Shown here: positions 1 through 12,232 of the stretch, one piece after another
How the letters are laid out: every line of letters begins with the position of its first letter
Numbering within the stretch: the first letter of the stretch is position 1
From: Dictyostelium discoideum
Taxonomy: Eukaryota
Reading direction: 5' to 3'
NCBI GenBank assembly: GCA_000004695.1
Contig: CM000154.2
Location: forward strand, 4,352,001-4,416,000
DNA length: 64,000 nucleotides
Notes under the pieces: model-generated
Databases searched by the model: none
Told to the model about the DNA's origin: nothing
What the model saw: only the letters and a program-made list of their open reading frames with translations
Position numbers and translations under genes: made by a program

Positions 1-1
1 T

Positions 2-619
2 GAATCTCAATTGGAAAGAATTAAAAATGAAGTCATATCACCAACATTAAAACAATCAACAATTAATTTCATCTTTAATAATTTTAATGATTTTAAAGAA
101 ATTATAATATCAATTTTTAATAATAATATTAATCATACTAATAATAATAGCAATATCAATAGTGAAGAAATTTTAAATAATATAAACAAACTAAAATATT
201 TTTGTAATGGTTTAATAGATTGTTCAATGGATGGATTATTACCATTATATAATTATTTAGAAACTAATAATAGAATAGAGATTGAAGATGATTATGTTTT
301 AGTTGAAATTTGTAAACGTGGTGATTTAAATGGTTTAGAACAAATTTTAATAAGAAATAATAAGTTAGTAATTAAAAGGGTATTAAGTTGTTCAATAGTG
401 TTTGGTCAATTGAAGATGTTTGAATATATAAATAGCTCTAAGCATAGTTGGATATTGTCTAATTTATCAAATACTACATCCCCAATTTCATTATATGATT
501 TTGACCAATTCATTGAATATGCAATCAAATATTGTCAATACCATTTTATTGATTATTTTAGAGACGTTTTAAAATTAAAATTAAAATCACTTTATAACAT
601 TAATAAATCATTTATTTAA
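2..619 (+). CDS. C-terminal fragment of a protein-coding gene that continues upstream of the window; Asn-rich protein of unknown function
   Basis: The frame is open from window position 2 (gaa tct caa ttg...) to the stop at 617-619. The ORF-track start at 11 is TTG, not ATG. There is no stop upstream in frame, so the gene is truncated by the window edge. Confidence 0.4.
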   Translation, partial: ESQLERIKNEVISPTLKQSTINFIFNNFNDFKEIIISIFNNNINHTNNNSNINSEEILNNINKLKYFCNGLIDCSMDGLLPLYNYLETNNRIEIEDDYVLVEICKRGDLNGLEQILIRNNKLVIKRVLSCSIVFGQLKMFEYINSSKHSWILSNLSNTTSPISLYDFDQFIEYAIKYCQYHFIDYFRDVLKLKLKSLYNINKSFI

Positions 620-726
620 ATTAATTTTAAAATTAAATAATTTTATTTACATCTTATTTTTTTTTTTTTATTTTTTTTTTATTTTTTTTTTTTTTATTTT
701 TTTTAAAAATATTAACTATAAACTAA

Positions 727-2400
727 TTAATTGAACTCTTCTTTAATAATTAAACCATTTGACCATTGTTGGAATGCCCATTGAGTTTTTTGAACACGGT
801 TACCACCATAAGTGAAATCCATAAACATTTCATATGCTGAATTTTCACCATCGACAATTGTTTTTAAAACTTTAGCTTCATGAATAGTTGCGTTACTGAC
901 AAAAGCTTCTTCAGCAGCACGGTTGGCAGCTTTACCAACACGATTGGTTGAATCACCTTTTTCAAACATAACAATTTCGTCATGATAGTATTTTTCAAAT
1001 ACTTCTAAAATCTTATTATCTTGAATACCTTTAATAACTGCTTCTAAATTTGCTCTAATATCATGTGTTTTGGTAGTTTCTTCGGTGGTGGTTTGTTCAG
1101 ATGCTACAACAACTGCTGCTGCTTCTTCAACTTTAGTTTCTTCAGTGGTGGCTGATGCTGATGCTGGTGCTGGACCTTTATTTTCATTGAATTCTTCTTT
1201 AATTACTAAACCATTTGACCATTGTTGGAATGCCCATTGAGTTTTTTGGACACGATGGCCACCATAAGTGAAATCCATAAACATTTCATAAGCGGTATTA
1301 TCACCATCAACAATTGTTTTTAAAACTTTAGCTTCATGAATAGTTGCATTATTAACAAATGATTCTTCGGCTTTTCTATTGGCTTCTTTACCAACACGAT
1401 TGGTTGAATCACCATTTTCAAACATAACGATTTCATCATGATAATATTTATCAAATACTTCTAAAATTCTACCTTCTTGAATACCTTTAATAATTGAATC
1501 TAAATTTGCTCTAATATCATGAGTAACTGGTGGAACAACAACTGCTGCTGCTTCTTCAACTTTAGTTTCTTCAGTGGCTGGTGTTGGAGTTGCAGCTGGA
1601 GCTGGACCTTTATTTTCGTTGAATTCTTCTTTAATAATTAAACCATTAGACCATTGTTGGAAACACCATTGAGTTTTTTGAACACGATGACCACCATAAG
1701 TGAAATCCATAAACATTTCATAAGCGGTATTATCACCATCAACGATAGTTTTTAAAACTTTAGCTTCATGAATAGTTGCATTACTAACAAAGGCTTCTTC
1801 GGCTTTTCTATTGGCCTCTTTACCAACACGATTGGTTGAATCACCATTTTCAAACATAACAATTTCATCATGATAGTATTTTTCAAATACTTCTAAAATC
1901 TTATTATCTTGAATACCTTTAATAACTGCTTCTAAATTTGCTCTAATATCATGTGTTTTGGTAGTTTCTTCGGTGGTGCTGGTGGTGGTGGCTGGTGCTG
2001 GAGTTGCAGCTGGAGCTGGACCTTTATTTTCATTGAATTCTTCTTTAATTACTAAACCATTTGACCATTGTTGGAAACACCATTGAGTTTTTTGGACACG
2101 ATGGCCACCATAAGTGAAATCCATAAACATTTCATAAGCGGTATTATCACCATCAACAATAGTTTTTAAAACTTTAGCTTCATGAATAGTTGCATTACTA
2201 ACAAAGGCTTCTTCGGCTTTTCTATTGGCTTCTTTACCAACACGATTGGTTGAGTCACCATTTTCAAACATAACGATTTCATCATGATAATATTTTTCGA
2301 ATACTTCTAAAATCTTATTATCTTGAATACCTTTGATGATTGCTTCTAAATTTGCTCTAATATCATGAGTAGTTGTTGTTGTTGGTGTACTAGTAGCAGT
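727..2400. repeat. Four tandem DNA repeats of about 462, 422, 422 and 368 bp that make up the coding repeats of the 727..2592 gene.
   Basis: The string gaattcttctttaattactaaaccatttgaccattgttggaa... recurs at about 1189, 1611 and 2033, with a variant at about 727. The units are nearly identical at nucleotide level, including synonymous positions. Confidence 0.85.
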
Positions 2401-2592
2401 GGTGGTGGTGTTATTTGTATTTGGTGATGTTTCAGTTGCAACAATTGTTGTTGTAGTTGCTTCAGTAGTTGGAACTGGAGTGGTTGTAGTTGGTTCTGTT
2501 GTTGGTGCTGCGACTGGTTCTGTTGATTTTTTATTATCTTTGGATTTTTTAGATTTACCTAAACCCAAAACTTTCTTAAATTTCTTGAACAT
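727..2592 (-). CDS. Single-exon gene for a 621-aa protein. It has a basic N-terminus (MFKKFKKVLGLGKSKK), Thr/Pro/Ala linkers and four tandem ~125-aa domains that look NTF2/SnoaL-like (THDIRANLEAIIKGIQDNKILEVFEKYYHDEIVMFENGDSTNRVGKEANRKAEEAFV...WSNGL[VI]IKEEF).
   Basis: Continuous minus-strand ORF running from Met to stop. Four protein repeats are visible by eye and are more than 90% identical. The fold assignment rests on the pattern of alternating hydrophobics and on the ...GDxxxxEMFMDFTYGG...W..G.W.I motif; I did not run an HMM. Confidence 0.7.
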   Translation of the reverse strand: MFKKFKKVLGLGKSKKSKDNKKSTEPVAAPTTEPTTTTPVPTTEATTTTIVATETSPNTNNTTTTATSTPTTTTTHDIRANLEAIIKGIQDNKILEVFEKYYHDEIVMFENGDSTNRVGKEANRKAEEAFVSNATIHEAKVLKTIVDGDNTAYEMFMDFTYGGHRVQKTQWCFQQWSNGLVIKEEFNENKGPAPAATPAPATTTSTTEETTKTHDIRANLEAVIKGIQDNKILEVFEKYYHDEIVMFENGDSTNRVGKEANRKAEEAFVSNATIHEAKVLKTIVDGDNTAYEMFMDFTYGGHRVQKTQWCFQQWSNGLIIKEEFNENKGPAPAATPTPATEETKVEEAAAVVVPPVTHDIRANLDSIIKGIQEGRILEVFDKYYHDEIVMFENGDSTNRVGKEANRKAEESFVNNATIHEAKVLKTIVDGDNTAYEMFMDFTYGGHRVQKTQWAFQQWSNGLVIKEEFNENKGPAPASASATTEETKVEEAAAVVVASEQTTTEETTKTHDIRANLEAVIKGIQDNKILEVFEKYYHDEIVMFEKGDSTNRVGKAANRAAEEAFVSNATIHEAKVLKTIVDGENSAYEMFMDFTYGGNRVQKTQWAFQQWSNGLIIKEEFN

Positions 2593-4001
2593 TTTTATTA
2601 TATTATATTATAACTTATTATTAAATTATTTAATTATTTAGATTATATATTTAAAATTAATTTATTTTTTTATTTATTTATTTAAAAAAAATTACTATGA
2701 AATTTTTTTTTTTAATTATTTTTTTTTTTTTTTTTAAAAAATTTTTTTTTTTTTTTATATGAAATTATTATTATTACAAAAAGTATTAATATATTTATTT
2801 AATTATTTATTTATTTATTTTTAATTTTATTCAAATAAAAAAAAAATTTTTGGTTCTAATTATAAATGAATGAAAAAAAATTTTTTATTTTTTTTTTTTT
2901 TTTTTATTTTTTTTTTAATTTATTTTTTTTTTTTTTTTTTTTTTTTTTTTCAGTTCCAGAATATTAAACCCGAATTGAAAAATAACGGTAACAAATGAGA
3001 AGGTTTTTTTTTTTTGGTATGAAAACGATTATTGTAAAATTATTTCGGGTTTTTTGTGATCAAAAGCAAAATTTTTAAATATATGGGGCCAAGGGAAAAA
3101 AAAAAAAAAAAAAAAAAAAAAAGGAAAATTTTGGTGCCAGTAAATTTTTTCCTAAAGTTAAATTTTTGGTGGCTTCTTTCCAAAAAATAAATAAAATTTT
3201 TCTTTTACTTAATAAATAAAAAAAAAAACTATGTAAAAGAATAAAAATAATGAAAATTATTGTTTTAAAAATTAAAGTTTAATTACTTTTTATTTGGGTT
3301 TTTTTTTTTTTTTTATGTTTAAAATAAAAAATGAATAATTTATAATAATTTTCTTTTTTAGGTTTTAAATAATTCATTTATTGTTTTATTGTGGTGGGTT
3401 GACATTTTTTTATTTTTTTAATCGAAAAACATTGGATATAACTTCACTTTTTTTACTTTTTTTTTTTTTTGATAATTTTTTGGTTTGGCAAATTATTAGA
3501 AAAATATAAAAATAAAAAGAAAATTCTAATGAAACTTTTACATAAATAAAAACCAATTGACATTAATCTTATTATTATTTTTTTTATTATTTTATTTTTC
3601 TTTTCAAAAGATATTTTTTTTTTCTTTTTTTAGGTTAATATCTAAAAGATTTAATCACCAAAAATAAAAATATAAAAAAAAAAAATAAAAATAAAATTAA
3701 AATTAAAAATAAATAAAAAATAAAAAAAATTAAAAAAAAAAAAAAAAAAAAAATTAAAAAAATTGAAAAAAATATTAAAAAGACTATAAAAAAAATATCC
3801 TGGGTACTTTTTCTTTACACAGTAAAATAAAAAGATTTTTTAAATAAAAACAATATCTCCTATAAAATTAAATTAATTTTTATTTTTTTTTTTATTTTTT
3901 TTTTTTTTTCAATTTTTTTCATGTGAATGTATACCCCAAAAACATTTGGGATTTTCAGAAAAAACAATTAACGATAACTCCTCATAAGTTTCATAAATTT
4001 T

Positions 4002-4053
<52 letters not shown>

Positions 4054-4437
4054 ATTAAACAAAAAAAATAAAATAGAACCTATTAGGTTGTATAAAAAAA
4101 GACAACACACAACCACAAACACACAAAAAACATCATTATAACATTACATATAAATATACGAAGCCACACTTTTTAAAAAAAGAGACTTTCTCCCCCTGTG
4201 TGTATGTATTTTTTTTTTTTTTTCATTGAATATTTTTTTTTATTTTTTTTTTTTTTTTATTCTTAAAAAACCAATCTTTTCTTTTTTAATACTAATACAA
4301 ATAAAATAAAATTATAATAATAGTAATAATAATAATACTTTATAATATTTATTTTTATTTTATTTTAAAATAGTTTATAAAAAAAAAAAAAAAAAAAATA
4401 AATAAAAAAAAAATAAATAAATTAAAATAAAAAAATA

Positions 4438-5592
4438 ATGATAACTATTTCAGAAGAATTAGAGAATTATTCTCTTTCAAAATTTTTTGAAAAATGTTAT
4501 TATTATTTATTTAAAAATTGGTCAACAACAACCACCACAACAACTGCAACTACAAAAACAAAATTAAATAAAAATAAAATTAGTAAAAAGAATGAAAAAA
4601 ATCATATTTCACATCAAACTCAATATATAAAAAATGACAATAATTCTTTAAATAATAGTAATAGTAACTGTTGTAATAGTAATAATAATGATAGTAATAA
4701 TAATATAAAATTAAAAAATGAAAAAGAAGAATTAATTAATAATAATAATAATGAAAAAAAAACAATTTATTCATTAGTTGGAATTGAAGAAGCACCAGAA
4801 CATTTAAAAAGAGAATTTATATTGAATGGATATAGGGTAGATTTTTCATATTTATTATGTTTTAAATCAGTGTTGATATTTGGACATAACGATTTCGCTA
4901 ATATACATAGTCATTTAATACCGGCATTGTTTTTTATGTATACATTGTGGGGAGTGTTGACAGGATCGAGTGGAGGTTATAACGATTATGCAACTTTTGA
5001 TAGCGGTGACAAGATAGTGTTCACCATATTCATTGGGGCAGCCATCACCACCTACATCCTGTCGTTCCTATATCATACGTTTGGGTGCCACTCATTATGT
5101 ACCTATTCGAAATTGTTGGTATGTGATTATTTGGGAATCATCCTATTGATAGGGTCTAGTTTTTTTCCACCACTTTATTATTCGTTCAAGGCGAATCATA
5201 TCGGGTTAATGATATTTTATATGGGTTCAATTACAATGTTGTGTTTGTTATTGGCAATCATGGTTTTAATACCATCGTTGGCCGATAAGAATACTCTAAG
5301 AAATACTTTATTCTGTTTAACGGCTTTGTTTGGTATTGTGCCTTCAATTCACACACTTTTCATTTACCCAGCCCAAGAGGTGTATTACTTTATATTCCGT
5401 TTGGTTTGTATGTTTTTAATTTATGGTGCTGGTTTATTAGTTTACATCTATAGAATTCCTGAAAGTTTAATACCTGGTTATTTCGATTCAATTGTAACAA
5501 GTCATTCAGTTTGGCATTTCTTTACTGCTTATGCTACTTTTTTTAGTTTAAATACTTATTTAGAATTATATAGTAAAATTTCAAATCTATAA
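4438..5592 (+). CDS. PAQR / hemolysin-III / AdipoR-like seven-transmembrane protein, 384 aa, with an Asn/Thr-rich N-terminal extension.
   Basis: Single ORF. PAQR signature motifs are present in the right order: NGYRVDF...HNDFANIHSHL (compare AdipoR HNETxNIWTHL), an S...H at the end of TM2 (LYHTFGCHS), and HxxxH in TM7 (TSHSVWHFFTAY). Seven hydrophobic segments can be read off the translation. Confidence 0.75.
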   Translation: MITISEELENYSLSKFFEKCYYYLFKNWSTTTTTTTATTKTKLNKNKISKKNEKNHISHQTQYIKNDNNSLNNSNSNCCNSNNNDSNNNIKLKNEKEELINNNNNEKKTIYSLVGIEEAPEHLKREFILNGYRVDFSYLLCFKSVLIFGHNDFANIHSHLIPALFFMYTLWGVLTGSSGGYNDYATFDSGDKIVFTIFIGAAITTYILSFLYHTFGCHSLCTYSKLLVCDYLGIILLIGSSFFPPLYYSFKANHIGLMIFYMGSITMLCLLLAIMVLIPSLADKNTLRNTLFCLTALFGIVPSIHTLFIYPAQEVYYFIFRLVCMFLIYGAGLLVYIYRIPESLIPGYFDSIVTSHSVWHFFTAYATFFSLNTYLELYSKISNL

Positions 5593-5684
5593 AATAAATA
5601 AATAAATATATAAAAATAAAAAATAAAAATAAATAAAAATAAATAAATAAATAAATAAATAATAATGTTCCTTATTTGGAAATA

Positions 5685-5724
<40 letters not shown>

Positions 5725-5774
5725 AAAACATAAAACTTTTTTTAAATATCTATAAAAGATTTAAGAAATTAATT

Positions 5775-5823
<49 letters not shown>

Positions 5824-6105
5824 AATTTACCATCTTAACTTCTTTTAATCAAAAAATAAAAAAAAACAACTTTTTTTTGGTAAATCTTGGAATTAGATAA
5901 ATAAAACAAATGTAGGGGGAACAAAAATCCTAAAATTTCAAAACTTAATTTTTTAAGAAGTATATATTTTTTTATTTATTTTAAATTGAATTTTTTTTTT
6001 TTTTTTTAGATTTTTTTTTTTTATTGACAATGACTTTATTTTTTTTTTTTTTTGTTTGCATTAAATTAATTTCCCACCACACACCCCGCACAATAAATTA
6101 TCACA

Positions 6106-8111
6106 ATGGATAATAATAATAATCCAAATAATAATAATCCAAATAATAATAATAATAATAATAATAATGATTATAATAAATGTCATTATCATCCGACTAA
6201 TGAAATAAATTTAATTTGTTTAGAAGCAGAGTGTAAATTAATGCCATGTTGTGTAGCTTGTATGTCAATTAGTGGGAAACATCATAGACATAGTTTTGAT
6301 TTAGTTAATAATTGTATTTCAAAAATTATTGATAATTTTAAAAAAATATATCCAAATATTTCAAAAAGAATTAATGATTATAAAGAATTATCAGAAAAAT
6401 CAAATTCGATTCATTCAAATTCTAAATTAGATTTTTATAAAAATATTGCTCTTAATGATAAAGTTTTTGCAAATTTAATTAATACTTTAAGTTCAATTCA
6501 AAGAAATATAAAAAATGAATTACAAACAAATCAAGATAAAAATTATGAACTAAATTCAAATGAATCTTTACTAATAACTAATAATAGTCAAATACTTTCA
6601 AATATTTTAAATAATGTCTCAATTGATCATTTGGATGATTCAATTAATAATGATAATAATGATAATATTAATTTAGTTAAATATTATCAACAATCTTTAG
6701 AAGTTTTAAATGATGAAATCATTGAAATTGATTATCAAAATTCTTTACTAACTTTCGATCTTCAACTAATTGAAGAATTAAAAGAAAATTTTAAAAAAAT
6801 TTATTCAATTAATCAATCAGATAATATTAATATTGAAGATGAAGAAGAAGAAGAGGATGAAAAATTTAAGATTGGAATTGATGAAAATGGCAATGGGTTT
6901 GTAAAGAGTATGTATGGTGTGTGTAATTTTAAAGAGAAGGGGGTGGATGATGATGATTATTAATATGAATTTTTTTTTATTTTTTATTATTTTAAAATTT
7001 AGATGAAAATAAAAAGTATTATATTTATTCAGAGAATAGTGAACAAGAAGATAAAGATTCAGTTGCATTTGGAGAAGATTGTGGTAATTTATTAAACATT
7101 AGATCAAATAGAGTATTGAAGAATGTAATGTTGTTAGATGGATTTAAAGAGAGTTTAGGAGTTGGTGTATTACCAGATAGTATTGAATATTTGGAGATAT
7201 GTGATATTAAAACACCTTTGGTGGTTGGATCAATACCATCAAGTGTAAGAACATTGGTATTAAATGATGGATTTAGTCAACCATTAGAACCTGGTATTAT
7301 ACCATCAAGTGTAAAAAGTTTAGATTTACATAATATTAAAAATCGATTAAATGTTGGTTCAATTCCAAGATCAGTTGAAAATTTGGTTTTAAATAATGGA
7401 TTTAATCAACCACTTTTAGTTGATGTAGTATCGTTAATATCAGATGGTGTAAAATTTTTAACATTACATAAAATTAAAAGCCAATTAAAGGTTGGCTCAA
7501 TTCCAAAAACAGTAAAGAAATTAAGTATTGGTGATGGATTTTCACAATATTTGGAAAGTGGAATTGTTCCAAATGGTGTAATTACATTATATATTAATAA
7601 TATTAAACAACAGTTACAAATTGGATCAATTCCAACTTCTGTAAAATTTGCAACTTTTGGTGAAGGATTTAGTCAATTGCTTTCACCTGGCATTATTCCA
7701 AAGGGTGTAATGATGTTGTTTTTCTATAACATTAAATGTCCATTGGTTATTGGTTCAATTCCAATTTCAGTTACATGGCTAACTTTTTATAATGGTTTCA
7801 ATCACTCAATATCACCTGGTATAATCAGTAAAGGTGTGGAAAGATTATTATTACATGATATTAAACAACCATTAGAAATGGGTTCAATACCAACAACAGT
7901 AACTCACATCGTACTTGAAGATGGATTCAAACAAGCACTAACACCAGGAATCATTCCAAATTCAATAAAAGAATTAACTTTAAAAAATGTAAATCTTCAA
8001 TTAGTTGAAGGTTCAATACCAAGACAAATTCCAAGAATTATTTTAAATAATTTTAATGAATCATTAGAAAATTGTAATTTAGATCAATCCGTAGAAATAA
8101 AAATAGAGTAG
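6106..8111 (+). CDS. Copy 1 of the B-box-like zinc finger / coiled-coil / FNIP-repeat gene. Two exons: 6106..6907 and 7003..8111. An alternative acceptor would start exon 2 at 7033.
   Basis: Exon 1 encodes [37 protein letters not shown] followed by a heptad-rich region. The donor is a|GTATGT at 6908, in phase 1. The acceptor is TTTAG at 7001-7002. Exon 2 encodes 13 or more FNIP repeats (GSIP..V..L.L.DGF[SN]Q.L.PGIIP). The frame is open across the splice. Confidence 0.65.
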
Positions 8112-8113
8112 GG

Positions 8114-8163
<50 letters not shown>

Positions 8164-8378
8164 GATTTAATAAAAATTAAATTTTAAAAAAAAAAAAAAA
8201 AAAAATTCCTTTTTAAAAATAAAATAAATAAAATTATTAAATCGATGTGCAATTTTTTTTTTTTTTTTTTTTTTTAAAATTTTAAGTTTATTAAATCATG
8301 ATTGTTTTTTTTTTTAACCACCCACACCACAAACCATCAACAAAAACACTATTTCCATTTTTTTTTTTTTTTAATTTT

Positions 8379-8420
<42 letters not shown>

Positions 8421-8446
8421 AATCAATAACAAATAATATATTAAAA

Positions 8447-9181
8447 ATGAATAAAGATAATAACAATAACAAATGTTCATTTCATCCAAATAAAAATTTA
8501 GAACTTTTATGTTTTAATTGTAAATTTATTCCATGTTGTATGCACTGTATTTCTCAACATGGTGAACACCATGGTCATAAAACAAATTGTATAGATTCAA
8601 TTGAAACATCAAATATTCTCAAAATGATGAATTTATTTAAAAATGATATTATTCCAAAATTAAAAGAAATAGTTGAAAATGATAAACAAATAATCAATAA
8701 ATCTGAAAATATTTATAATGAAATTAATCAACAATATGAAAATAATAAAATTTTAGTAACAAACGAATTTAAAAAGTTTCATACATTAATTCAAATTAAT
8801 CAATTAGATATTGAAAATCAATTAAGAACAACATTTGATGAAAATACAATAATATATACTATTATTAATTCATCAATCAATAATAATAATAATTATAATA
8901 TTAATGATGATAATAATTATGGTATTAATATAGAATCAATAGGTAATAAATTAGATAATCTCAATGATACTCACTTACAATATTGTAATGAAAATCAAAT
9001 TTATAACTGGCTTGAGAATCAAGATATTTATCAATTATTTAAAAAATATCAACAATCAACCTTAATAGTTAATAATAAAAATAATATTGAAAATTTAAAT
9101 AAATTAAAAGAATATAATAATCAATCAATAGTATTTAAAATAATGAATGAAATTAAAAATAATTTAAAATTAATTTATTAA
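8447..9181 (+). pseudogene. Truncated 5' part of a B-box/FNIP paralog (copy 2a). It has the B-box and coiled coil only and ends prematurely after ...EYNNQSIVF.
   Basis: It is homologous to exon 1 of copies 4-6 ([51 protein letters not shown]...). It diverges and stops where intact copies continue for about 60 more codons. There is no intron and no FNIP exon. Transposon-like insert DNA follows. Confidence 0.6.
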
Positions 9182-9339
9182 ATTTTATGAAAAAATGAAA
9201 AGTTGGTGTAAATATTTTTATTTTTTTATTTTTTTATTTTTTTATTTTTTTATTTTTTTTTTTTTTTTATCCAGATTTTAATTTTTTATTTTTTATTCAT
9301 CCCTTTTTTATTATATTTTAGTTATTTTATTTAACAACA

Positions 9340-10200
9340 AACACTGTTCTTTTTCTTTTATTTCTTTAAGTTTATCTTTGTCTAATTCAATGCCAAAACC
9401 ATCATTATATGTTTCTTGAAGATCAGCTAACATACAGAGTATTGACGATTTTGTTTAAATGATCCAAATTTCCTCGGTATGTTGGAGTTATTTTAAAATG
9501 ATTAATTTTTAAAAAAAAAGTTTTCCACATACACACTATTGGAGCTTACAAAATTAGGTAAAGATATATCTAGAAAAAAAAATAATAAAATAATAAAAAA
9601 TAAAAAATACCAATAATATAATTATTTTAATAATAATAAAAAAAAAAAAAAATAAAAAAAATAAAAATAAAATAAAATTAATAACAAAGTATTAAAAGTA
9701 AGAGATTTGGTTATTTAAATAATTACCCAATATTGGAAAGCTATCATGTTTACGAATAATTTTACCATTATTATAGTATTGTGGCTCTATTTTGGTATTT
9801 TCTAGTATATATTTGATCATGAACGGAACCTGGGAATCCCTCAGGATGTAGTAACAATAATCTGTATGATCTAGTGCATACCTCACAATGAAATTTGACC
9901 ACATGACTTTACTTTTACCAGAATAATAATTTTTTTTTGGATTTGATGAGTGGGAGTTTCAATATCAATAGAGGTAGATTCAGCAGCAATCGCACGATAA
10001 AGCACATTAGATATAGGATGTTTTAAAAAGCCAACTGATTCAACAAGTTTATCTCTTTTCCATTATTTCCTTGCATACAACTCAAAGTGAATGGTTGACT
10101 ATAGTGATTTTGAAATGTTTTTGGACTAATACCAAAAGTAACACATATCTCATAAATTGGAAGATATTGTTTCCAATATAAGAGAGTCTAACACAAAAAA
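9340..10200 (-). mobile_element. Degenerate Tc1/mariner-like (DDT-type) DNA-transposon fragment. It is a transposase pseudogene with stops and frameshifts.
   Basis: Minus-strand conceptual translation gives a helix-turn-helix-like segment (WKQYLPIYEICVTFGISPKTFQNHYSQ) followed by KSKVMWSNFIVRYALDHTDYCYYILRDSQVP..GKIIRKHDSFPILGNY. This resembles the Tc1 HTH and the start of the DDE domain (..WSDESKF..). A+T is lower than in the flanks, and the reading frame is broken by several stops. Confidence 0.35.
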
Positions 10201-11091
10201 AAAAAAAAAAATAAATAATGTTATTAATTAATTCATTTTATTTTTTACATTTTTTATTTTTTTTTTCTGTTTATAATTTTTTTTTTTTTTTACTTTGTTT
10301 AATTTAGGACTTGGTGTAATTTTACAAAATTATTTAATTTAATTTAATTTAATTTAATTTAATTTAATTTAATTTTTTTTCATTTTTTTTGTAAAAAAAT
10401 AAAAATTTTCACACCAACTTTTCATTTTTACATAAAATTTTTTTTATTTTTTTTTTTATTTTTTTTATTTCTATTTCGAAAAATTATTAAGATGGTTAAA
10501 AAAATAAGAGTTATTATACCCTTTATGTTGGAAAAGGCTTATGAAGATATAAATAATAATGATTATATAAATAAAAAAAATATTTACGGGATTTGGGTAT
10601 ATAAAACAAATAATACAAAAAAAATGTATATTGAAACAAAATCAGAACAAGGTTCACTTCCTCTTCTAGTTCATTTACAAAATGAACATTTATCGTCTAG
10701 AAAAGTCGAGTTATGGCTTGTTGAAAATAAAATTTATATACCAAAGTTAAGAGAAAAATATTTATATTTTTTAAAATGCAAAAAATGGTAAGATAAATTT
10801 ATTTATTTATTAAAATAATAATATATTAATATTTGTTATAATAAGTCAAAAAAGAAAAGATAAAAGAAATAAAAAAAAAAACCAAATTAAAGAAAAAGAA
10901 ATTTACATTAAAGTTGAAGATAATAAAGAAATTAGCGAAAACGAACGTGATTTAATTGAAGAAAATAAAAAAGAAGTTAGCGAAAATGAATGTGATTTAA
11001 TTGAAGAGGATGATGATGAAATATTATGTGAAGATGATGAAATACCATGTGGACAACCAATCTCATCGGAAGAAGATGAGCCAACTCGTTA

Positions 11092-11550
11092 TACTTTAAC
11101 ATTGATTTCAAAAACGATCAAATTGAAAGAAATAAAAATGACAATGGTACAAATAAAAAAGAAAAATTAAAAATTGAAATTGATGAAAATAAATTTAAAT
11201 TTATAATGAGTAAGTGTAAATAAAAATTTAATAATTATTATTATTTTATATTAATATTATAATATATGTGTATATATTTATATATATATATATTATAAAT
11301 AGATGATAATAAAAAATATTATATATATTCAAAGAATAGTAAATTTTCAGATTATCAAGATAAAGATTCAATTGCATTTGGAGAAGATTGTGGTAGTTTA
11401 TTAAAATTTAAATTAAAAACAAATATAAAGAGGGTTATGTTATTAGATGGATTTAAAGAAAGTTTAGAACCAGGTGTATTACCAAATGGTATTGTACATT
11501 TAGAAATGAACTGGTATAAAAAAAGTTTTTGAGGGAAAAAAAAAAAGGAG

Positions 11551-11581
<31 letters not shown>

Positions 11582-12232
11582 AAAAAAAAAAAAATAAATT
11601 AATCCACATTTTTAGTAATTTTATAAAGAGTAAAAAAAAAATTTAATTTTCCTTTTTTTTAAAAAATAAATCCACTACTTTTGTGTGTAAACAAACTAAA
11701 ATGGCTTCTTAAGAATTTATTTTTTCCCCTTTTTAGTTTTTTTTTTATACCTGAATCTGGAAAATTAAAAATTCATAATTTTGAAATTATTATAAAATAA
11801 TGTTTAAAAAAAAGGGGTAATGGTGAAAAAATTAATAAAAAAATTACGATTAAAAAAATTATTTTAAATGATTTTCCAGAAGAATCATTAAAAGTTTGTA
11901 AACTAAATAAATCTATAGAGATAAAAATTTTTAAATAAAATAAAACAAAAAACTATTATATAAACAAAAAAATAGAAATAAATAAATTAATTTTCATTTG
12001 TAAAATTGGATTTAGTCTTGATTGGTTTAAAAATTTGATAATATTATACCATATGTTTTGTCATTGGAATTTTTTTAAAAGAATAAGTTTGATAAGAAGA
12101 AAATATATGTTAGGTTTTCTTTGAAGGTAATTAATGATCATCAAACCTTTCATTTTCAGTATTGATGAAGTGAAATTAGGAATTGGATACATTTTATAGT
12201 TTTTTTTTTTTTTAATTTCATATGAATTTTAC

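Follow-up and report, generated by a model that had tools for sequence, protein, structure and literature searches.

How does one gene come to carry four closely similar copies of a small domain, and what might a protein built in this way do? The question is raised by an open reading frame (ORF) at positions 727..2592 on the minus strand of a stretch of Dictyostelium discoideum DNA of 64,000 nucleotides (nt), referred to here in its full length as the window (contig CM000154.2, positions 4,352,001 to 4,416,000). This ORF is a single-exon coding sequence (CDS) of 621 amino acids (aa) with its stop codon at 727-729, and its translation matches exactly the protein XP_635685.1/EAL62162.1/UniProt Q54FT2 (DDB_G0290603, Dictyostelium discoideum AX4). 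The gene is already in the reference annotation, where the record is titled 'hypothetical protein DDB_G0290603', and a SnoaL-like label is already public through its UniRef name, 'SnoaL-like domain-containing protein'. The best explanation overall, which we consider reasonably probable, is that DDB_G0290603 encodes an old array of four SnoaL_5 units, the first three partly converted among themselves, that would act as a membrane-tethered ligand handler. We hold the structural and evolutionary description with high confidence; the membrane-tethered ligand-handling mechanism is a tentative proposal, possible rather than likely.

Architecture of the DDB_G0290603 protein

From the N- to the C-terminus, the product consists of a basic-hydrophobic peptide, a Thr/Pro-rich stalk and four acidic NTF2-like units carried on linkers rich in Pro, Ala, Thr and Glu, with a 74-residue N-terminal region preceding unit 1 and a core of 113 codons in each unit. 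All four units lie in one minus-strand frame, in agreement with an earlier note on this DNA that had described four tandem coding repeats, and a tblastn search with one unit returned exactly four matches (E 1e-72 to 1e-78). The tandem array was detected by TRF with a period of 414 base pairs (bp), 3.0 copies, 89% matches and a score of 2013 (1106-2371), while our repeat search recovered a 300-nt core four times, its copies starting 414, 432 and 456 bp apart for units 1-2, 2-3 and 3-4, respectively. The TRF score and the tblastn matches lie well outside what chance would produce. The uniform period of 422 bp given earlier is only an average of these spacings; the accompanying observation that the linkers differ and that the last unit is about 40 bp longer is borne out by linkers of 25, 31 and 39 aa and by a difference of 42 bp (456 vs 414 bp). 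Taken together, DDB_G0290603 is an intact, expressed-looking single-exon gene, and its codon use, with GGT at 32 of 32 glycine codons (GGT/GGA) and ACC at 22 of 55 threonine codons (ACC/ACT), gives a weak hint of decent expression.

Predicted fold and family of the repeat units

Profile matches and a structural model identify the units as SnoaL_5-type domains with a predicted NTF2-like fold. In a Pfam scan of the whole protein, SnoaL_5 (PF20409) scored 64.3 bits against a cut-off of 24.1 (E 1.8e-17) and SnoaL_2 was matched at E 2.3e-16, each over four stretches. Searched singly, the units scored 23.4-27.2 bits against SnoaL_5, two of them just above and two just below the cut-off. Modeled with AlphaFold2 from an alignment of 35 sequences, unit 2 reached a mean predicted local distance difference test score (pLDDT) of 94.3 and contains helices at 4-16, 20-27 and 46-59 together with five strands, in the helix-helix-strand-helix-four-strand order of an NTF2-like cone. 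Foldseek comparison of this model with the PDB placed 3hk4 first (template-modeling score, TM, 0.85; root-mean-square deviation 1.9 Å; 25% identity), followed by limonene epoxide hydrolases and ketosteroid isomerases (TM 0.78-0.84) and by designed NTF2-fold binders. Altogether 540 PDB entries matched at E<=0.001, and the best 50 listed are NTF2-like proteins or designs on the NTF2 fold. The top match, a structural-genomics entry titled 'putative SnoaL-like polyketide cyclase', is the only solved SnoaL_5 structure found; a profile of dictyostelid units finds it by sequence as well (E 4.8e-08), and in a PDB sequence search with the whole protein it was marginal (E 0.056), the other two matches being spurious. 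The NTF2/SnoaL-like fold proposed earlier is upheld by these results.

Related enzyme and transport families gave a different picture. The SnoaL family (PF07366) scored 33.9 bits with the whole protein against a cut-off of 28.4, a value that the four repeated units may inflate, and none of the units matched this cyclase family at E<=0.01 in the per-unit Pfam scan. The NTF2 family (PF02136) was matched neither by the whole protein at E<=1 nor by single units at E<=0.01. Likewise, the limonene-1,2-epoxide hydrolase family was absent from the Pfam scans of both the whole protein and the units, the likeness to these enzymes being structural only (TM 0.80-0.84, ~10% identity). NCBIfam yielded nothing above threshold, with only sub-threshold matches related to ketosteroid isomerase.

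Divergence between units and age of the array

The earlier note had taken the units to be almost identical at synonymous sites. Their 339-nt cores differ at 16-40 positions, with identities of 88.2-95.3% overall and of 92-95% among units 1-3, and Nei-Gojobori synonymous divergence (dS) is 0.14 between units 1 and 3, 0.26 for both the 1-2 and the 2-3 pairs, and 0.35-0.54 between unit 4 and the rest, values well beyond near-identity. Nonsynonymous divergence (dN) between units is 0.007-0.077 against this dS of 0.14-0.54, and since dN/dS lies well below 1, the units are under purifying selection.

We constructed a neighbor-joining tree of 36 units from nine genomes (297 nt, 200 bootstraps). Unit 4 forms a clade by position across D. 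discoideum, D. citrinum and D. dimigraforme (97% bootstrap), and units 1-3 are sorted by species rather than by position. In D. dimigraforme units 2 and 3 pair (92% bootstrap), in D. citrinum they group together, and in D. discoideum the unit-1 and unit-2 sequences mix, disW unit 1 being placed among the D. discoideum unit-2 sequences. All six units of D. purpureum are monophyletic (100% bootstrap). Each of the three linkers can be recognized by its position in all discoideum-group species, and their ends tell them apart: TTEETTK in linker 1, EETKVEEA..VVVPPV in linker 2, and EETKVEE..VVVA.E followed by a tail in linker 3. As a clock we used the neighboring HlyIII-family gene. Its dS to AX4 is 0.08-0.21 among discoideum-group genomes and rises to 0.41 for D. 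citrinum and 0.64 for D. dimigraforme. Compared between AX4 and either of the latter two species, orthologous units differ by dS 0.27-0.49, and units 1-3 within one genome by 0.11-0.33. The unit-4 clade, the shared linkers and the dS of the neighboring gene together show that the four-unit scaffold already existed when D. discoideum, D. citrinum and D. dimigraforme diverged; the array is old.

The layout also carries a period-2 signal, in that unit 1 is closest to unit 3 (dS 0.14), the first 88 nt of units 2 and 4 are the same, and linker 3 is composite. Judging from these sequence features, a block of two units may have been duplicated as the array grew.

An excess of polymorphism among D. 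discoideum strains driven by conversion was considered and rejected, the HlyIII-family neighbor being equally diverged (dS 0.08-0.21). As a separate observation, this level of divergence among the D. discoideum/D. cf. discoideum genomes seems high for one species and may reflect cryptic species.

Copy number and evidence for unequal crossing-over and gene conversion

Repeat number varies across strains and species, with four units in eight assemblies, two in one D. cf. discoideum, six in D. purpureum and one in Heterostelium. The identical 621-aa protein is encoded on two contigs under two NCBI accessions (AX4-type assemblies), and four-unit arrays were also recovered from six further assemblies, two each of D. 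discoideum and D. citrinum and one each of D. cf. discoideum and D. dimigraforme, on contigs of 2.5-5 Mb. The D. cf. discoideum assembly GCA_054859205.1 encodes a protein of 343 aa with two units only: the first is unit-1-like at its 5' end and unit-3-like at its 3' end, and is followed by linker 3 and unit 4. Such a hybrid is the product expected of unequal crossing-over between units 1 and 3. At the D. purpureum locus (GL870969.1, L003:6001-8610), the genomic frame reads through six units. Three Heterostelium proteins (P0020, P0029 and P0047) combine the same kind of N-terminus with a single unit and are likely orthologs. Occasional unequal crossing-over changes the copy number of the array.

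Likeness between units is also distributed unevenly along their length. In one D. citrinum assembly (L008), unit 1 carries a unit-4-type tract (KAANRAAEE and GGNR); units 1, 2 and 3 of one D. cf. discoideum assembly (L001) have strain-specific variants in common; and the identity of AX4 units 2 and 4 is confined to the 88-nt stretch mentioned above. A Sawyer-type permutation test found clustered identity runs at p<0.05 in 17 of 43 within-gene pairs, where about 2 are expected by chance, with one pair passing Bonferroni correction. Greater likeness within than between species, the mark of concerted evolution, is seen for units 1-3 only and not for unit 4. We conclude that units 1-3 have been partly homogenized within species by patchy gene conversion and that unit 4 evolves independently. 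Of the ongoing unequal crossing-over and concerted evolution that had been proposed for this gene, the copy-number changes (2, 4 and 6 units), the homogenization of units 1-3 and the converted tracts stand, but the proposal does not extend to unit 4, which sorts by position.

Other histories of the array can be weighed against this one. Tandem repeats of ~430 bp can collapse or expand in short-read or Sanger assemblies, and the single two-unit allele stems from one assembly, which might cast the repeat or its number as an assembly artifact. We give this practically no credence: the same 621-aa protein lies on two contigs under two accessions, four units recur in six more assemblies, and all arrays are in frame with distinguishable units, so that for the four-unit array the independent assemblies refute it. 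Extremely improbable as well is a very recent amplification, as the earlier note had suggested, in which the units were duplicated within D. discoideum and are alike because they are young. The 92-95% DNA identity of units 1-3 and the variation in copy number among genomes would fit it, but D. citrinum and D. dimigraforme, separated from AX4 by a neighboring-gene dS of 0.41-0.64, have the same four units and the same three distinct linkers, orthologous by position, and both the between-unit dS of 0.14-0.54 and the 97% by-position clade of unit 4 contradict it. Independent, lineage-specific duplications and losses, rather than conversion, could also be held responsible for the within-species likeness of units 1-3, given that copy number clearly changes by unequal exchange (2, 4, 6 units) and that the monophyly of the six D. 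purpureum units fits expansion as well as homogenization. We nevertheless think this unlikely, because the linkers keep their position in three discoideum-group species, a layout that repeated loss and regain would need to restore, and because the likeness is patchy inside units, as in the unit-4 tract of D. citrinum unit 1 and the 88 nt common to AX4 units 2 and 4.

Two gene models at these loci deserve separate mention. One complete 113-aa unit is treated as an 'intron' in the D. purpureum model DICPUDRAFT_28055 (740 aa), the sole real interruption being a short intron early in unit 1. In D. discoideum GCA_054859385.1 (L006:6001-7893), the model P0010 is without the GKSKKSK of the N-terminal motif and is not colinear with the locus, probably through a spurious call of a 21-nt intron.

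Single- and two-unit paralogs across the dictyostelids

In searches with a single unit, every major dictyostelid group (Dictyostelium, Polysphondylium, Heterostelium, Acytostelium, Cavenderia and Tieghemostelium) yielded single-domain paralogs of 112-131 aa with 63-79% identity, the one-unit paralogs of AX4 being DDB_G0270080, DDB_G0284631 and DDB_G0293760. With linker 3 plus unit 4 as the query, many two-unit paralogs of 236-237 aa were retrieved (DDB_G0281999 in AX4; P0198-P0213 and P0046), their units joined by a Pro/Thr linker of ~15 aa. The locus tags of some of these run consecutively along a contig (e.g. ACTFIR_004700-004702), suggesting that two-unit paralogs form tandem gene clusters, and the 90%-identity clusters of this form hold up to 19 sequences. 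A profile search of 1.84 billion representatives yielded 763 clusters at E<=0.001; among the 150 clusters listed, nearly all are ~115-125 aa long with one domain. Multi-unit forms look like a dictyostelid habit, of which four units with an N-terminal extension would be the extreme case, and SnoaL_5 stands out in social amoebae as unusually conserved and multiplied. The multi-pocket architecture, earlier called unusual, is less so beside a whole dictyostelid family of one- and two-unit paralogs.

In three paralogs (P0049, P0007 and P0008), the C-terminal region is long and unrelated, P0049 being a 'UBX domain-containing' model; these fusions may be gene-model errors.

The N-terminal peptide and the stalk

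Residues 1-23 carry a net charge of +9 (10 Lys and 1 Asp), as expected from the Lys-rich N-terminus pointed out earlier, and every other segment of the protein is acidic. Within this peptide, the segment FKKFKKVLGL is amphipathic and MFKKFKKV is invariant among discoideum-group orthologs. The corresponding N-terminus is MNFFKKIFKRKSKK in D. purpureum (P0001), and MGHLKRFFSKLGKK, MVQIKRFFSKIGNK and MGFFKKLFSRHKK in the Heterostelium proteins P0020, P0029 and P0047, each of the last three being followed by a stalk rich in Ser, Thr, Pro and Gln and by one domain. In DDB_G0290603 itself, the stalk (aa 24-74) varies in length among orthologs, has no Pfam match and is unstructured in the full-length AlphaFold2 model, which is of low confidence throughout. 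No signal peptide or transmembrane segment was detected in the protein, the highest Kyte-Doolittle mean over 19 residues being 0.78. One Heterostelium paralog, P0036 (PPL_10287), has a C-terminal hydrophobic, transmembrane-like helix instead of the basic N-terminus. The composition and conservation of the basic-hydrophobic N-terminus suggest a role in membrane tethering.

A bacterial gene cassette and a candidate ligand class

SnoaL_5 proteins were also surveyed in prokaryotes through a genome scan that covered one genome per species, used a five-sequence alignment as the query and returned 360 loci. Gene-neighbor counts refer to the best 80 of these loci, with three ORFs on each side clustered. 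They are mostly from Bacteroidota, with some from cyanobacteria, proteobacteria and others, and their SnoaL_5 proteins share 32-47% identity with the Dictyostelium unit. In 61-62 of the 80 loci, the gene immediately upstream, on the same strand, belongs to one family of ~195 aa (median gap 99 bp). The gene directly downstream, also on the same strand, belongs to a ~160-aa family in 36 loci (median gap 11 bp) or, as an alternative, to a ~192-aa family in 18-20 loci (median gap ~32 bp), and the two downstream families never occur together. Pfam and NCBIfam identified the upstream family as a Crp/Fnr-type regulator (cNMP_binding) and the downstream families as DoxX (PF07681, related to DoxD) or YceI-like (PF04264).

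A literature search found no description of this Crp/Fnr-SnoaL_5-DoxX/YceI cassette, which is conserved and apparently undescribed. DoxX/DoxD proteins reside in membranes and are associated with the redox chemistry of quinones and thiols, and the ligands of YceI proteins are polyisoprenoid or fatty lipids. By analogy with these DoxX or YceI partners, the neighborhoods suggest that SnoaL_5 domains handle a hydrophobic small molecule at the membrane, and the cassette offers a concrete lead toward SnoaL_5 function.

Proposed mechanism and alternative functions

Under the mechanism we tentatively propose, the protein would be cytosolic, being without a signal peptide or transmembrane segment, and its N-terminal peptide would attach it to acidic membranes through electrostatic attraction, much as a MARCKS-type basic-hydrophobic site does. 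Held out by the stalk and linkers, four cone-shaped pockets would each bind or transform a small hydrophobic molecule, possibly quinone-, isoprenoid- or polyketide-like to judge by the bacterial gene neighbors. Having several units might raise capacity or avidity, or the units might pair as intramolecular pseudo-dimers. NTF2-like proteins are usually dimers, and it is from this, together with the very short linker of the two-unit paralogs, that the pseudo-dimer idea derives.

Several points weigh against the overall explanation. Literature searches on DDB_G0290603 and its family members returned no relevant paper, experiment or expression data. Membrane binding is argued from the composition of the N-terminus only, and the same 23 residues could be a nuclear localization signal or a calmodulin site. 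Carrying the bacterial context over to the amoeba is a weak step, the proteins being ~40% identical and the neighborhoods being those of the best 80 of 360 loci, mostly in Bacteroidota. The full-length AlphaFold2 model (pLDDT 38.9, 7-sequence ortholog alignment) neither supports nor refutes pairing of units as pseudo-dimers. On the evolutionary side, the dS estimates are noisy, with ~75 synonymous sites per unit, and the two-unit allele is known from one assembly only.

The unit could instead be an enzyme, akin to a polyketide cyclase, an epoxide hydrolase or an isomerase, with the array serving as a fourfold catalytic assembly, a form of gene dosage in cis, in secondary metabolism rather than as a binder or scaffold. 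We take this seriously and still find it doubtful. The fold neighbors are enzymes (limonene epoxide hydrolase, ketosteroid isomerase and SnoaL-like), the domain is very highly conserved across dictyostelid groups (70-79% identity), and several polar residues are invariant or nearly so from bacteria to amoebae (Y27, E35, N36, K44, E51, D84 and Q97 in the numbering of the bacterial-type homolog P0055). Numbered along the unit, the invariant polar residues are E36, K46, N49, R50, E53, Q96 and Q100. However, no single unit matches the SnoaL cyclase family at E<=0.01, the limonene epoxide hydrolase and NTF2 families go unseen in the Pfam scans, and the NCBIfam matches related to ketosteroid isomerase are all sub-threshold. 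Moreover, no SnoaL_5 member appears to have been characterized: literature searches found no functional paper on 3hk4/Mlr7391, whose sole mention was in a template table. The enzymatic reading also overlaps with the explanation we favor, which allows for pockets that bind or transform their ligand. As for the N-terminus, KKFKK...KSKKSKDNKK resembles a bipartite basic nuclear localization signal, and two Heterostelium relatives are labeled 'nuclear transport factor 2 family' in UniRef, which could point to a protein acting in the nucleus or in nucleocytoplasmic transport. Yet the NTF2 family proper is unmatched in the Pfam scans, the motif has aromatic and aliphatic residues (FF, L, I) in its conserved core, as is typical of basic-hydrophobic sites that bind membranes, one paralog is anchored by a transmembrane-like helix, and the bacterial partners are membrane or lipid proteins; a nuclear role is in our estimate very improbable.

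A wider extrapolation would take SnoaL_5 as a small-molecule module that is conserved from a bacterial cassette, mostly in Bacteroidota, to the dictyostelids, was perhaps acquired by them from bacteria, and was expanded there into one-, two- and four-unit forms, with DDB_G0290603 as a membrane-tethered multivalent sensor, carrier or detoxifier of a quinone-, isoprenoid- or polyketide-type lipid. This is a long shot; if true, the ligand could be a metabolite of bacterial prey or an endogenous signaling polyketide. DDB_G0290603 is in itself an ordinary gene, and repeat dynamics of its kind are already known. Its array nonetheless provides a clean, datable example of in-frame domain-array evolution, combining an old linker scaffold, an independent unit 4, patchy conversion and occasional unequal crossing-over.

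Features of the locus

The positions of all features are collected in Table 1. The window is AT-rich, with long poly-A/T tracts between genes, and the divergent neighbor of DDB_G0290603, the HlyIII-family gene at 4438..5592 (+), keeps its pairing with the array gene in all discoideum-group genomes examined.

Table 1. Coordinates of DDB_G0290603, its segments and an upstream island in the window
Feature	Position	Strand	Basis
Complete CDS, DDB_G0290603	727..2592	-	ORF listing and exact protein match
N-terminal basic-hydrophobic motif, aa 1-23 (MFKKFKKVLGLGKSKKSKDNKKS)	2524..2592	-	Composition, net charge +9
Thr/Pro/Ala-rich low-complexity stalk, aa 24-74	2371..2523	-	78% T/S/P/A
Repeat unit 1, aa 75-187, SnoaL_5/NTF2-like	2032..2370	-	SnoaL_5 23.4 bits
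Linker 1, 25 aa, ENKGPAPA...TTEETTK	1957..2031	-	Conserved by position across species
Repeat unit 2, aa 213-325, SnoaL_5/NTF2-like; unit used for the model	1618..1956	-	24.8 bits; pLDDT 94.3; TM 0.85 to 3hk4
Linker 2, 31 aa, ...TEETKVEEAAAVVVPPV	1525..1617	-	Conserved by position across species
Repeat unit 3, aa 357-469, SnoaL_5/NTF2-like	1186..1524	-	SnoaL_5 27.2 bits
Linker 3, 39 aa; linker-2-like part, then linker-1-like TTTEETTK tail	1069..1185	-	Repeat search and cross-species alignment
Repeat unit 4, aa 509-621, most divergent unit	730..1068	-	By-position clade, 97% bootstrap
GC-richer conserved island, 360-500 bp upstream of the ATG (tentative)	2951..3095	.	blastn conservation

An antisense ORF at 2399..2641 (+), for which a transcript had been considered in the earlier note, does exist as an open frame, with a GTG 'start', no Met anywhere and runs of Val and Gly. 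An open antisense frame of 65-101 codons is present in all orthologs because the sense strand is rich in ACN, CCA and GAA there. We rejected this ORF as a gene: having no ATG and mirroring the Thr/Pro/Glu codons of the sense strand, Val/Gly runs included, it is a by-product of those codons, with no evidence for a gene or a transcript.

In the 1.85-kb divergent intergenic region, blastn revealed an island (2951-3095) with 92-96% identity in three discoideum-group assemblies and 84% in a fourth, reduced to patches of only ~45 bp in D. citrinum and D. dimigraforme. An Rfam scan of positions 1-12000 of the window gave no match to an RNA family, and the island is tentatively a possible promoter or 5' untranslated region element.

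Comparison with known systems

As a repeat array, DDB_G0290603 recalls polyubiquitin-type genes, which likewise consist of in-frame, head-to-tail units with differences in copy number, partial homogenization and purifying selection. Unlike these, it is homogenized weakly and in patches (dS up to 0.54), unit 4 and the linkers have retained their positional identity, and the product is, as far as known, not cleaved to monomers. The N-terminal peptide resembles MARCKS-effector-domain-like peptides, both being short, unstructured and Lys-rich with Phe and Leu (FKKFKKVLGLGKSKK), a resemblance for which we claim no homology; in contrast to MARCKS, DDB_G0290603 starts with MFKK and has no myristoylation site.

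The units have the same alpha+beta cone fold with an internal pocket as SnoaL polyketide cyclase, limonene-1,2-epoxide hydrolase and ketosteroid isomerase, but sequence identity to these enzymes is only ~10%, and the Pfam scans gave no per-unit match to the SnoaL family and none to a limonene epoxide hydrolase or NTF2 family. With 3hk4 (Mlr7391 of Mesorhizobium, SnoaL_5), they have in common the domain family, the size of ~115 aa and a GK-x-A-x-R helix signature; 3hk4 is a single-domain protein, whereas DDB_G0290603 adds to its four units a basic N-terminal peptide and a low-complexity stalk. Finally, the one- and two-unit paralogs of the dictyostelids have a domain 67-85% identical to that of DDB_G0290603, and the two-unit forms share with it the tandem fusion through a short Pro/Thr linker. 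They have two units at most and are without the basic N-terminal peptide and the long stalk, which in DDB_G0290603 accompany an array of four.

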